In this document: positions 1-22,032 of the stretch, piece after piece
Layout of the letters: the number at the start of each line of letters is the position of its first letter
How positions within the stretch are numbered: position 1 is the first letter of the stretch
DNA from: Escherichia coli
GTDB taxonomy: Bacteria; Pseudomonadota; Gammaproteobacteria; Enterobacterales; Enterobacteriaceae
Assembly (NCBI RefSeq): GCF_003334255.1
Contig: NZ_QOWU01000068.1
Length of the DNA: 22,032 nt
Reading direction: 5' to 3' (one strand)
Translations under genes and position numbers: made by a program
Notes under the pieces: generated by a model
Databases searched by the model: none
What the model was told of the DNA's origin: nothing
The model's input: the letters and a program-made list of their open reading frames with translations, nothing else

Positions 1-9
1 ATATCCATA

Positions 10-1473
10 ATGAGTAAAAAGTTTACAATGACACTCCTGTCATCTTCTCTGGCCGGGCTTCTGGTGATGAGTGGTGGGGTGAGTGCGCAGGAAGAAAAAT
101 ACACAGTGCCGTATGCCATAGGTGAAGGTAAATGGGGGAATACCTATGAAGTTGTAAAGACAGGCGGTAATGGTAACTTCAGATACGAAGTAAAAGAGAA
201 AAACGGCAAGAAGAGGTCACTTTTCACATTTGATTCAAAAGGGGATGTAATAATCAATGGCAGTGGCATTACGTACACAATTCATGACGGTGCGCTGAAC
301 GATTTTGCTCAAACAGCTGAGAAAAAAAAGAATGGACAGTCTCAGTCGCACAGAATGACTGATAGCGTTGTTCGTGATGTATATAACAAAGTATACAGTC
401 TGCAGAGAACAAAAATTACAGGTTTCAGCGTCGAAGATGGGGAGAATGGGAAGGTTTCTCTGGGTAGCGATGCGAAAGCCTCTGGTGAGTTCTCAGTAGC
501 TGTTGGTAACGGTGCTAAGGCTACAGAAAAAGCGTCAACATCAGTGGGATCATGGTCTGCAGCACTAGGACGGCAAAGTGTGGCTTTAGGTGTGGGAACA
601 TATGCTTATGCAAATGCATCTACAGCCGCCGGAACAGCTGCTTATGTTGATGGTTCTGCTATTTATGGTACCGCTATAGGTAATTACGCAAAAGTGGATA
701 AAAATGCAACTGAAGGTGTTGCATTAGGAGCCAAAGCAATATCTGCACATAAAAACAGTGTGGCCTTAGGGGCAAACTCCCGAACCACTCGTGATAATGA
801 AGTTTACATTGGTTATGAAGAGGCTTCTGGTAAAGCATATAAAACCCGCACCCTTGGAGGATTGACTGATGGAACTCGCCCATCCGATGCAGCAACTGTT
901 CGTCAGGTTGATCGGGTAAAAGACAGTGTTGAGCAACTGGCTCAGGATACGAATACCCGCCTTGTAGTCGAAGCGAAAAAGTCTCGTGAATATACAGACT
1001 CCAGAACGACAGTTGGTGTGAACCCTGACGGAAAACTTACCCGTGCAGAAGGTGCGACTAAAACTATCGCCGTCAATGATGGTCTCGTTGCTCTGTCTGG
1101 CAGAACAGACCGTATTGATTATGCAGTTGGTAGCGTTGACCGCCGGGTTACTAAAAATACACAGGCTATTCAGTCCAATACTCGCCAGTTGCAGGAGCAT
1201 AATGCACGCCTGAACAGCCAGCAGCGTCAAATTCGTGAGAATCACGAAGAGATGAAGCGTGCAGCAGCACAGAGTGCAGCGCTGGCGGGGCTTTTCCAGC
1301 CGTACAGTGTGGGGAAATTCAACGCCACTGCTGCCCTGGGGGGGTACAGTGATAAACAGGCTGTTGCCGTGGGTGTTGGTTACCGTTTCAACGAGCAGAC
1401 CGCAGCGAAAGCGGGTATTGCAGCGAGTGATGGCGATGTGTCCTACAACATGGGCGTTAACTTCGAGTTTTAA
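10..1473 (+). CDS. Trimeric autotransporter adhesin, YadA/Eib-like (signal peptide, YadA-type head repeats, neck, coiled-coil stalk, C-terminal YadA membrane anchor)
   Basis: 487-aa ORF. N-terminus [29 protein letters not shown] looks like a Sec signal peptide. Repeated head motifs [10 protein letters not shown] / [10 protein letters not shown] / [15 protein letters not shown] / NSVALGANS. Neck-like [25 protein letters not shown]. Heptad-rich stalk ([33 protein letters not shown]). C-terminus [47 protein letters not shown] is a typical YadA anchor ending in F. The signal peptide resembles E. coli Eib proteins as far as I recall (unverified). Confidence 0.8.
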
Positions 1474-1497
1474 TTGCTGACAGTGACATGAAGCATG

Positions 1498-1530
1498 ACG
1501 GCAGGCGTGGAGTTTTGCCTGCCGTTTTTT
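1498..1530 (+). terminator. Rho-independent terminator immediately downstream of the adhesin gene
   Basis: 9-bp perfect stem ACGGCAGGC (1498-1506) / GCCTGCCGT (1517-1525), 10-nt loop, followed by a T-run (TTTTTT to 1530). Begins 25 nt after the adhesin stop codon. Confidence 0.6.
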
Positions 1531-1559
1531 CTCATGTGAGCATGAAACAGGTGACAGCG

Positions 1560-2033
1560 ATGAAAGTGATTCTGGCGACCCGCAACCGTTATCTGGAGTA
1601 TGGCCTGCAGCAGATGCTTGAGGGGTACAGGATAATACTGGCGAGGGAGTTTTTTACACCAGAGAACAGGAAGAGCGTACCGGCACATGATGAGTCATGG
1701 GTGATAATCTGTGATGCCCTCCTTGGCAGGCTGATGTGCTGCATGTTTCAGGGGCGCCGTTATCTTCAGATTGATGCGGAAGATGTTACGGGGCGCCTGG
1801 AGACGTACAGGAAAATCCGGAATGGTGAGTGGGTACATAATACGTATGCGCGACCACTGACGATGTCCGAGATGGTGGTGATGTTTGGATACGTGTACCG
1901 GGAGTCAAAGCCCTGCCATCTTGCCCGTGAAATGGGGATAAACACGAAGACGGTGAACACCTTTCTGTATCTGGGGCTTGGTAAAAACGGTCTTAAGTAC
2001 AGGAGTGTGAAGCACCTGGTTGGACGTGCGTAG
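1560..2033 (+). CDS. Putative small transcriptional regulator with C-terminal LuxR/GerE-type HTH
   Basis: ORF track gives 1488-2033. The start at 1488 lies inside the terminator hairpin and has no SD; ATG at 1560 (MKVILATRN...) has AGGTGA 5 nt upstream. C-terminal segment LTMSEMVVMFGYVYRESKPCHLAREMGINTKTVNTFLYLGLGKNGL matches the spacing of the LuxR/GerE HTH pattern (LT.RE.EVL ... S.KEIA..L.IS.KTV). N-terminal part has no recognisable receiver residues. Family assignment is by eye only. Confidence 0.45.
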   Translation: MKVILATRNRYLEYGLQQMLEGYRIILAREFFTPENRKSVPAHDESWVIICDALLGRLMCCMFQGRRYLQIDAEDVTGRLETYRKIRNGEWVHNTYARPLTMSEMVVMFGYVYRESKPCHLAREMGINTKTVNTFLYLGLGKNGLKYRSVKHLVGRA

Positions 2034-2210
2034 CCGGAATGCATATTCGTGAGTCGGGTAATGAGAGTTGAACGGTGGCAGTGAGAATGGAACAGAAAAA
2101 AATCAGATGCGGAAGGCGGAAATACACAGCGGGTGCGATGTGCTTCATGCTGTTTGTATGGCTGGGTGGTGTGGTGACATTCTGTGTGCTGGCCGCTCTG
2201 ATAATGCAGT

Positions 2211-2236
2211 AAAAAAAGGGGAGCTGGTGACTCCCC
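2211..2236 (-). terminator. Rho-independent terminator for minus-strand transcripts (YkgJ-like gene / serT read-through)
   Basis: Stem GGGGAG (2218-2223) / CTCCCC (2231-2236), 7-nt loop. The plus-strand A7 at 2211-2217 gives a U7 tail on the minus-strand RNA. Confidence 0.55.
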
Positions 2237-2390
2237 GTGCTGATGTCACTGGATAAACCAGTCGTCAGCGGTTTCCCAGGCTTCCGAGTCGGCAAAACTA
2301 GTTGACGTCTAATACCAGAGCCTGTAACTGTTTTTCGTCCATAAATTAACCTTCATTTGATGCTGGATTGAACATATCAAAATCAGGCAA

Positions 2391-2741
2391 TTACACAAAT
2401 CTATGTACAGGCTCTATTTCCGGAAGTCCGTATTTTGCCCGTGCGCGGCTACATGCTTCATTCGCGATGTCATTTTCGCCGGACATTGCGAATTCCCTGC
2501 ATGTGGACGGACGGTTTTTGTAAACAGAGCAATATGCGTTTTCACCCGGAGTTCCCGCCAGAGCGACACATCGGGGCTTTTTCTGATTGGTGCCGCTCAT
2601 ACAGCGATGAAAAGGAGATATTTGCTCAGTGAGAGTGGCCGGGACGTTTCCGCCAGCATCATCGGCTTCAGCCCAGTAAAAAGAGACGCGGAAAAATACA
2701 CAACAGGCACCACACGTCATGCATGGATTGGGGTTATTCAT
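2391..2741 (-). CDS. YkgJ/UPF0153-family putative zinc/iron-chelating protein (CxxCxxCC)
   Basis: 116-aa ORF. N-terminal motif [11 protein letters not shown] plus further Cys (CMSGT, CVALAG, CSVY, CREF) is typical of the YkgJ-type Cys-rich domain. Overlapping plus-strand ORFs 2403-2756 and 2435-2632 have no motifs. Start-codon context is weak. Confidence 0.65.
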
Positions 2742-2837
2742 AATTCATCGGTATAGCGATAAATCGTAAAGAGAACAATGTACCTAGTGTGTATTGAGCT
2801 AAATATACCAATTAGTATACCAAGTGTATACTAAGAG

Positions 2838-2870
2838 CAAAAAAGAAAGGGGCTACCATTTGGTAACCCC
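2838..2870 (-). terminator. serT intrinsic terminator
   Basis: Directly 3' of the tRNA. Minus-strand RNA GGGGUUACC-loop-GGUAGCCCC (includes one U-G wobble) followed by UUUCUUUUUU (plus-strand A-tract 2838-2848). Confidence 0.7.
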
Positions 2871-2879
2871 TTGATTATT

Positions 2880-2967
2880 TGGCGGAAGCGCAGAGATTCG
2901 AACTCTGGAACCCTTTCGGGTCGCCGGTTTTCAAGACCGGTGCCTTCAACCGCTCGGCCACACTTCC
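2880..2967 (-). tRNA. serT: tRNA-Ser (anticodon UGA)
   Basis: Reverse complement reads GGAAGTGTGGCCGAGCGGTTGAAGGCACCGGTCTTGAAAACCGGCGACCCGAAAGGGTTCCAGAGTTCGAATCTCTGCGCTTCCGCCA: 88 nt, long variable arm, anticodon loop CUUGAAA, encoded CCA end. Matches E. coli serT from memory. Confidence 0.95.
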
Positions 2968-2979
2968 GGAATGACGCGC

Positions 2980-3008
2980 ACTATAAACATCCCGATGCGG
3001 CGTGTAAA
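2980..3008 (-). promoter_or_regulatory. serT sigma70 promoter (-35 TTTACA, 17-bp spacer, -10 TATAGT, GC-rich discriminator)
   Basis: On the minus strand: TTTACA (3003-3008), 17-nt spacer, TATAGT (2980-2985), then GCGCGTC before the mature tRNA 5' end at 2967. A GC-rich discriminator is typical of stringently controlled stable-RNA promoters. Confidence 0.55.
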
Positions 3009-3009
3009 C

Positions 3010-3393
3010 CCCTAATTTGTTTGTTTGCCTGAAAAACAGCCAAAAGTGCATTGATAGCGTGAAATAACAGCAGATTGATCATTTCATCACCATGAATTCC
3101 TTCTCTTTTACTCGTTTAGCAACCGGCTAAACATCCCCACCGCCCGGCCAAAAGAAAAATAGGTCCATTTTTATCGCTAAAAGATAAATCCACACAGTTT
3201 GTATTGTTTTGTGCAAAAGTTTCACTACGCTTTATTAACAATACTTTCTGGCGACGTGCGCCAGTGCAGAAGGATGAGCTTTCGTTTTCAGCATCTCACG
3301 TGAAGCGATGGTTTGCCTTGCTACAGGGACGTCGCTTGCCGACCATAAGCGCCCGGTGTCCTGCCGGTGTCGCAAGGAGGAGAGACGTGCGAT
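3010..3393 (+). promoter_or_regulatory. hya operon promoter and 5' leader region (divergent from serT)
   Basis: About 380 bp of AT-rich non-coding sequence between the serT promoter and the hyaA start; SD AAGGAGGA at 3374-3381. Individual promoter and regulator sites are not resolved from sequence alone. Confidence 0.4.
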
Positions 3394-4512
3394 ATGAATA
3401 ACGAGGAAACATTTTACCAGGCCATGCGGCGTCAGGGCGTTACCCGGCGCAGCTTTCTCAAATATTGTAGTCTGGCTGCCACGTCGCTGGGATTAGGCGC
3501 GGGAATGGCACCAAAGATTGCCTGGGCGCTGGAGAACAAACCGCGCATTCCGGTGGTATGGATCCACGGTCTGGAATGCACCTGCTGTACCGAATCTTTT
3601 ATCCGCTCCGCTCACCCACTGGCGAAGGACGTCATCCTTTCCCTGATTTCCCTCGATTACGACGATACTTTGATGGCTGCCGCCGGAACCCAGGCGGAAG
3701 AAGTCTTTGAAGACATCATCACGCAATACAATGGCAAATATATCCTCGCAGTAGAAGGTAATCCGCCGCTGGGCGAGCAGGGGATGTTCTGTATCAGCAG
3801 CGGTCGACCGTTTATTGAGAAACTCAAACGTGCCGCTGCCGGAGCCAGCGCGATTATCGCCTGGGGAACCTGCGCGTCCTGGGGCTGCGTGCAGGCCGCG
3901 CGACCCAATCCGACGCAGGCAACGCCTATCGACAAAGTCATCACCGACAAACCCATTATCAAAGTACCTGGCTGCCCGCCGATCCCGGATGTGATGAGCG
4001 CCATCATTACTTACATGGTGACCTTTGATCGCTTGCCAGATGTCGACAGAATGGGCCGTCCGCTGATGTTCTATGGTCAGCGAATCCACGATAAATGCTA
4101 TCGCCGCGCCCACTTCGACGCCGGAGAGTTCGTCCAGAGTTGGGATGATGACGCTGCCCGCAAAGGTTACTGCCTGTACAAAATGGGCTGCAAAGGGCCT
4201 ACCACCTATAACGCCTGTTCCTCCACACGCTGGAATGATGGCGTTTCTTTCCCAATCCAGTCTGGTCACGGCTGCCTGGGCTGTGCGGAAAATGGTTTCT
4301 GGGATCGCGGTTCGTTCTACAGCCGCGTGGTCGATATTCCGCAAATGGGTACTCATTCCACCGCCGATACCGTCGGTTTAACCGCGCTTGGCGTGGTGGC
4401 AGCGGCTGTTGGTGTGCACGCAGTCGCCAGCGCCGTTGACCAGCGCAGACGTCATAACCAGCAACCTACAGAAACCGAACATCAGCCAGGCAATGAGGAT
4501 AAACAGGCATGA
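3394..4512 (+). CDS. hyaA: Hydrogenase-1 small subunit (NiFe hydrogenase, Tat signal)
   Basis: 372 aa from ATG 3394 (the ORF track starts at an upstream in-frame GTG). Twin-arginine motif RRSFLK, Cys clusters for FeS centres, C-terminal hydrophobic anchor. Matches E. coli HyaA from memory. Confidence 0.95.
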
Positions 4513-21938: not shown

Positions 21939-21955
21939 ATGTCTAATAAAATGAC
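21939..21955 (+). pseudogene. cspG: cspG 5' fragment (first 17 nt, MSNKMT), interrupted by IS1
   Basis: ATGTCTAATAAAATGAC encodes M-S-N-K-M-T, the cold-shock protein N-terminus, divergent from cspH as cspG is in E. coli. The reading frame then runs straight into the IS1 terminal repeat and stops after 7 IS1-derived codons. Confidence 0.6.
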
Positions 21956-22032
21956 GGTGATGCTGCCAACTTACTGATTTAGTGTATGATGGTGTTTTTG
22001 AGGTGCTCCAGTGGCTTCTGTTTCTATCAGCT
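21956..22032 (+). mobile_element. IS1 insertion sequence, left (insA-proximal) end, truncated by the window edge
   Basis: GGTGATGCTGCCAACTTACTGATTTAGTGTATGATGGTGTTTTTGAGGTGCTCCAGTGGCTTCTGTTTCTATCAGCT matches the IS1 terminal inverted repeat and the start of insA (GTG GCT TCT GTT TCT ATC AGC = M/V-A-S-V-S-I-S) as I recall it. Junction position is ambiguous by 1-2 nt. Confidence 0.9.

Follow-up and report, generated by a model that had tools for sequence, protein, structure and literature searches.

The uninterrupted open reading frame at positions 10..1473 (+) of the window, the 22,032-nt stretch of Escherichia coli DNA analysed here, is almost certainly eibE, which encodes a surface protein of type Vc, a trimeric autotransporter, and belongs to the cargo of a lambdoid prophage, at its tail-fibre end. 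The frame runs from ATG to TAA and encodes 487 aa followed by the stop codon, exactly where the original prediction had placed it. All 487 residues match EibE (AAF63045.1 in AF151676.1) in a tblastn comparison with a phage collection, so that the Eib-like trimeric autotransporter proposed from the letters alone turns out to be the published protein itself. The identity extends to the DNA: positions 961..3455 of AF151676.1, a record entitled 'Enterobacteria phage P-EibE' with E. coli ECOR-9 as host, correspond to window positions 1..2495 with 100% nucleotide identity, 0 mismatches and 0 gaps over 2495 nt. The subfamily, which the original prediction had left unsettled, is settled as EibE, within the EibC-E cluster, and the encoded protein is EibE at full length rather than a fragment of a larger adhesin. 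We encountered no evidence contrary to this identification.

Identity and distribution of the gene

The gene is already known: its cloning, naming and functional description date from 2000, and crystal structures and mutational data exist for its family. EibE is therefore an Eib protein that already has a name and an experimental record, and there is no novelty in the gene itself. The GenBank product label of AAF63045.1 reads 'immunoglobulin-binding protein EibE; cell surface protein', the UniRef name of the identical sequence (P0001) is 'Immunoglobulin-binding protein EibE', and the UniProt accession of EibE is Q9LA53 (PMC7247748). The NCBI/RefSeq name of the very same protein is only 'YadA-like family protein', which can now be replaced by EibE. 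Among the NCBIfam models, those for YadA, Ata, EmaA and BimA matched below threshold only, and as none reached its curated cut-off no name was assigned from this source. YadA proper (NF033478) was considered separately and ruled out, with a score of 116.9 bits against a cut-off of 750 bits and a match restricted to the C-terminal 114 residues (E = 1.1e-33).

The eibE-specific PCR primers of PMC4352079 match the window at positions 525 and 638. Identical copies of the protein occur on 63 contigs of a large protein collection. Out of 5426 complete E. coli genomes, 66 gave a megablast match to eibE; the match extended over 80% or more of the gene in 14 and reached 99% identity or more in 5. The eibE allele is rare, yet not new.

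Domain organization of EibE

The precursor begins with a Sec signal peptide (residues 1-26, window 10..87, +), assigned by rule rather than by a predictor: a KK n-region and a hydrophobic core are followed by VSA immediately before Q27, and cleavage would occur after VSA26. The same signal peptide is found in EibE, EibC and EibD, and published EibD constructs take Q27 as the first mature residue (PMC12511318). Alignment to EibC and EibD then delimits an Eib-specific N-terminal domain (NTD; residues 27-142, 88..435, +), whose boundary at E142 corresponds to E149 of EibD. This domain has no Pfam match and is not covered by any solved structure in the PDB; models of its counterparts in EibD, EibG and EibA show a novel fold (PMC12511318).

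A beta-roll head follows (residues ~143-270, 436..819, +). Pfam YadA_head repeats were detected within residues 149-257, the best of them with E = 1.6e-4, and the EibD crystal structure 2XQH aligns with EibE residues 151-396 (E = 3.9e-92). The neck (residues ~271-300, 820..909, +) lies inside this alignment and carries a DNEVYIGY... motif conserved in EibC, EibD and EibG. Next comes an N-terminal stalk segment (residues ~301-331, 910..1002, +), in which members of the family vary most. Its hydrophobic periodicity of ~3.7 agrees with the right-handed coiled coil reported in EibD and EibG, with the reservation that the segment is short, and we infer such a coiled coil here. The 2xqh alignment also covers residues ~332-368 (1003..1113, +), which are 95% identical to EibC and EibD and 81% identical to EibA, and which by homology to EibD are predicted to form the non-helical minidomain known as the saddle.

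Residues 369-428 (1114..1293, +) form a left-handed heptad coiled coil with a periodicity of 3.5 and a clean register, in which the a and d positions read IVNNHQNAL and VVILLIMS. The EibD structure 2xzr aligns with residues 364-418 (E = 8e-11), and the coiled coil, 77-78% identical to those of EibA, EibC and EibD, contains RID370-Y371, the conserved motif for binding IgG Fc. The protein ends with a YadA-type membrane anchor of four beta strands per protomer (residues 429-487, 1294..1470, +), which matches PF03895 (YadA_anchor; E = 2.3e-15) over its whole length and, with the residues just before it (413-486), the YadA anchor structure 2lme (E = 1.1e-17). EibE thus has the features of a type Vc protein, that is a YadA-like C-terminal anchor, an N-terminal Sec signal peptide and a passenger made of head, neck and coiled-coil stalk; by sequence it also belongs to the Eib family, being identical to EibE and 81-95% identical to EibA, EibC and EibD in the saddle. 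Eib proteins migrate as heat-stable multimers (PMC5450701).

The signal peptide, head repeats, neck and four-strand anchor named in the original prediction are all recovered, and the head and anchor matches in Pfam are significant. Two of its statements hold in part. The architecture had been called complete, and the parts listed are indeed present; what it overlooked is the domain of ~116 residues (27-142) that precedes the YadA-like head. The stalk had been described as roughly 130 residues long with heptad character: its length is right (297-428), and the heptad pattern is confined to the ~60 residues of 369-428.

The eib cassette and its prophage

Only 9 nt precede the eibE start codon in the window, and the promoter, with any leader, lies outside. 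On the other side, an intrinsic terminator with an 11-bp stem (7 GC pairs) and a T-run was found by a terminator scan at 1497..1526 (+), directly after eibE, and is the counterpart of the stem_loop that AF151676.1 records at 2458-2485. The companion gene orf-156E (1560..2033, +; 157 aa), also annotated in AF151676.1, matches phrog_6585, a family of unassigned function (E = 1.9e-93), and has no match in Pfam or NCBIfam. An orf-156 homologue follows every eib gene that we examined (eibA, eibC, eibD, eibE and eibG), and orf-156E could be a helper or a regulator of eib genes. Moreover, the whole orf-191/eib/orf-156 cassette recurs around eibA, eibC, eibD and eibG.

The setting of the gene is the one typical of eib genes, a lambdoid prophage in which eib lies 3' of the tail-fibre genes; the upstream part of this arrangement is seen in AF151676.1 and in strain JE86-ST02, which has an identical eibE. 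The genes upstream of eibE in JE86-ST02 encode a tape measure protein, J, lom, a tail fibre and a DUF4376 protein, which identifies this DNA as the right arm of a lambdoid prophage.

Two further elements were noticed beyond the cassette. A 45-aa ORF at 2075-2212 (+) with a hydrophobic C-terminus (…AMCFMLFVWLGGVVTFCVLAALIMQ), unannotated in AF151676.1, is homologous to orf-60, which is found 3' of orf-156 in the eibA, eibC and eibD records. Just past its stop codon, a GC-rich hairpin with a T-run lies on the opposite strand (2218-2236, -), ~155 nt downstream of a YkgJ-family gene, of which it may be the terminator.

Insertion at serT and the remainder of the window

The tRNA-Ser(UGA) gene serT, identified with ARAGORN at 2880..2967 (-), is where the eibE-carrying insertion ends on the right. 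In an alignment with the yccA-serT-hyaA region of K-12, homology starts at ~2876, at the 3' end of serT; since it starts only there, serT, lying between yccA and hyaA, must be where the eibE-carrying DNA was inserted. The window therefore places the end of the P-EibE prophage at serT, beside the hya operon. An alternative in which the chromosomal backbone would already begin at ~2415 was rejected, other serT prophages sharing sequence from that point and K-12 homology beginning at ~2876.

Between the eib cassette and serT lies the YkgJ-family gene, a cysteine-cluster gene at 2391-2741 (-) that is absent at this locus in K-12. The stretch ~2415-2880 also occurs in other, eib-less prophages at serT and seems to represent the right end shared by a family of prophages that integrate there. 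In JE86-ST02 (L002 14391-16100), a second prophage with an integrase, an exonuclease and dicB lies between the YkgJ-family gene and serT, which means that the serT site of that strain holds tandem prophages.

The window otherwise consists of the ordinary hya-app-etk-gfc-cspH region. At its far end (21939-22032), an IS1 end (GGTGATGCTGCCAACTTACTGATTTAG...) starts at 21959, 20 nt past the cspG ATG at 21939, and cspG is thus interrupted; this cspG/IS1 junction was absent from all 5426 complete E. coli genomes.

Proposed roles in Fc binding, serum resistance and adhesion

By analogy with EibD, the protein would be exported, would form trimers and would display its Fc-binding coiled coil in the same manner. 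The Sec system would export the precursor and the 26-residue signal peptide would be cut off, after which three C-terminal anchors (429-487) would build a 12-stranded barrel in the outer membrane. The passenger would thread through this barrel and fold as a trimeric lollipop, with the NTD and the YadA-like beta-roll head on the neck, followed by the short right-handed coiled coil, the saddle and the left-handed heptad coiled coil. Where the heptad coiled coil begins, the conserved stretch surrounding RID370-Y371 would bind human IgG Fc non-immunologically; a coat of Eib trimers would make the cell more resistant to serum complement, and the head would promote cell-cell aggregation.

The residue on which Fc binding depends in a paralogue is present. 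The Fc-binding aspartate of the Eib family, within the motif RID(Y/A)AVG, is conserved in EibE as D370, and D370/Y371 align with D387/Y388 of EibD and D391/A392 of EibG. In EibG, the substitution D391A abolishes IgG Fc binding and leaves chain formation intact, and a deletion up to the saddle has the reverse effect, with Fc binding kept and chain formation lost (preprint 10.64898/2025.12.25.695649). Compared with EibA, EibC and EibD, EibE is one heptad short in the Fc-binding coiled coil; EibG, which has the same deletion, still binds Fc. As a side observation, the residues 'EibE D378-Y388' given in section 9 of the same preprint do not exist in EibE, in which position 378 is R and position 388 is Q; the designation fits D387/Y388 of EibD, equivalent to D370/Y371 of EibE.

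Immunoglobulin binding and serum resistance of EibE are reported in the literature on this exact protein and on its paralogues. PMC5450701 and PMC7247748 give ECOR-9 as carrying eibA, eibC, eibD and eibE and, citing Sandt and Hill 2000, describe the Eib proteins of that strain, EibE included, as multimers that are stable to heat, can be detected with human IgG Fc and confer serum resistance. As for IgA, Sandt and Hill reportedly saw in 2001 that neither EibA nor EibE binds it, and mapped the binding to a segment common to EibC, EibD and EibF; the divergence of residues 301-331 in EibE would fit such a result.

Could EibE serve mainly in adhesion and in the formation of chains or clumps, as EibG and EibD do, with Fc binding as a side activity? 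The stalk of EibE is ~95% identical to that of EibG, its head region (143-270) is identical to that of EibD at 105 of 128 positions and to that of EibG at 88 of 128, and the head region is needed for chain formation by both EibD and EibG (PMC12511318). The separability of chain formation and Fc binding in EibG (preprint 10.64898/2025.12.25.695649) points in the same direction. However, the NTD of EibE is of the EibC type, with only 39 of 116 residues identical in EibG, and a role in adhesion is compatible with immunoglobulin binding and does not exclude it. We regard a primarily adhesive function as possible though on the unlikely side, and keep immunoglobulin binding as the preferred explanation.

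A second possibility is that eibE is a silent prophage remnant in this strain, its coding sequence intact and without any part in the phenotype of the cell. In AF151676.1 the DNA upstream of the gene is rich in A and T, without a strong match to sigma-70 on the + strand; in the related JE86-ST02 the adjacent genes for tail fibres are pseudogenes, and in shaken cultures Eib proteins are seen only faintly (PMC5450701). Yet the Eib proteins of ECOR-9 reached a high level in static culture (PMC5450701), the reading frame runs through 487 codons without a frameshift, and the allele is the very one whose cloning yielded an active Ig-binding gene. A silent gene is thus improbable. Finally, that the gene encodes a new, divergent Eib/YadA-class adhesin with a ligand specificity of its own and distinct from all named Eib proteins, for which the generic NCBI label, the lack of an NCBIfam model at its curated cut-off and the rarity of the gene might have spoken, and of which the original prediction had allowed a weaker form in calling it a possibly divergent member, is already refuted, beyond almost any doubt, by the 100% identity of protein and DNA to the eibE record and by the UniRef name.

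EibE among the Eib proteins and YadA

As a discovery, this result carries little weight; its value lies in the annotation and in minor side points. One of these concerns the way in which eib genes evolve. By sequence comparison, EibE is a mosaic, with an EibC-type N-terminus at the front and an EibG-type stalk and anchor at the back. Such a combination indicates recombination between eib-carrying prophages, by which eib alleles are shuffled, and bears on the typing of eib genes by PCR. We speculate that EibE, as a natural chimera of an EibC-type NTD and an EibG-type stalk, could bring together further properties, such as chain formation like that of EibG or an IgA specificity unlike that of EibC and EibD, and that the always-adjacent orf-156 might serve eib genes specifically as their regulator or helper; this proposal is a rather unlikely one.

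The front part of the mosaic is shared with EibC of ECOR-9 (AF151674.1). The first ~515 nt of the two genes are identical, and the proteins are 100% identical over residues 1-150 (signal peptide and NTD) and 85% identical overall, within the same gene cassette. EibC differs from EibE in the segment 301-331, where identity falls to 32%, in a right-handed segment longer by 11 residues and in one extra heptad; moreover, orf-60 and eaaC, an autotransporter gene, lie downstream of eibC. PCR primers published for eibC (PMC4352079) also have perfect matches in eibE, at window positions 163-182 and 436-455, because the first ~515 nt of the two genes are identical, and an eibC PCR with these primers would therefore also score eibE strains as positive.

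The back part is shared with EibG of STEC, a chain-like-adherence factor, represented here by strain JNEC-KY208 (WP_062864037.1). Over residues 271-487 the two proteins are ~95% identical, with only 11 differing positions; the variable segment 301-331 is identical at 31 of 31 positions, the stalk has the same length and the same indels, the Fc-binding aspartate D391 of EibG is D370 of EibE, and the genes lie in the same prophage cassette. In contrast, the NTD is the poorly conserved domain noted above, longer in EibG than in EibE, and EibG has Ala where EibE has Y371.

EibD, known from the structures 2XQH and 2XZR, is 76% identical to EibE and has the same domain order. It differs from EibE in its length of 511 aa, in insertions in the NTD, in a right-handed coiled coil that is 11 residues longer and in one extra heptad; residues 27-150 of EibE are 65% identical to EibD, and residues 301-331 only 32%.

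With the EibE of ECOR-9, finally, the gene in the window is wholly the same, including the terminator and orf-156E downstream. The 3.4-kb eibE clone from ECOR-9 was without chromosomal context, whereas the window adds the end of the insertion at serT, next to hyaA. Outside the family, YadA of Yersinia shares with EibE the lollipop architecture, the beta-roll head repeats and the four-strand anchor; in contrast to EibE, it is without the Eib NTD, the saddle and the Fc-binding segment.
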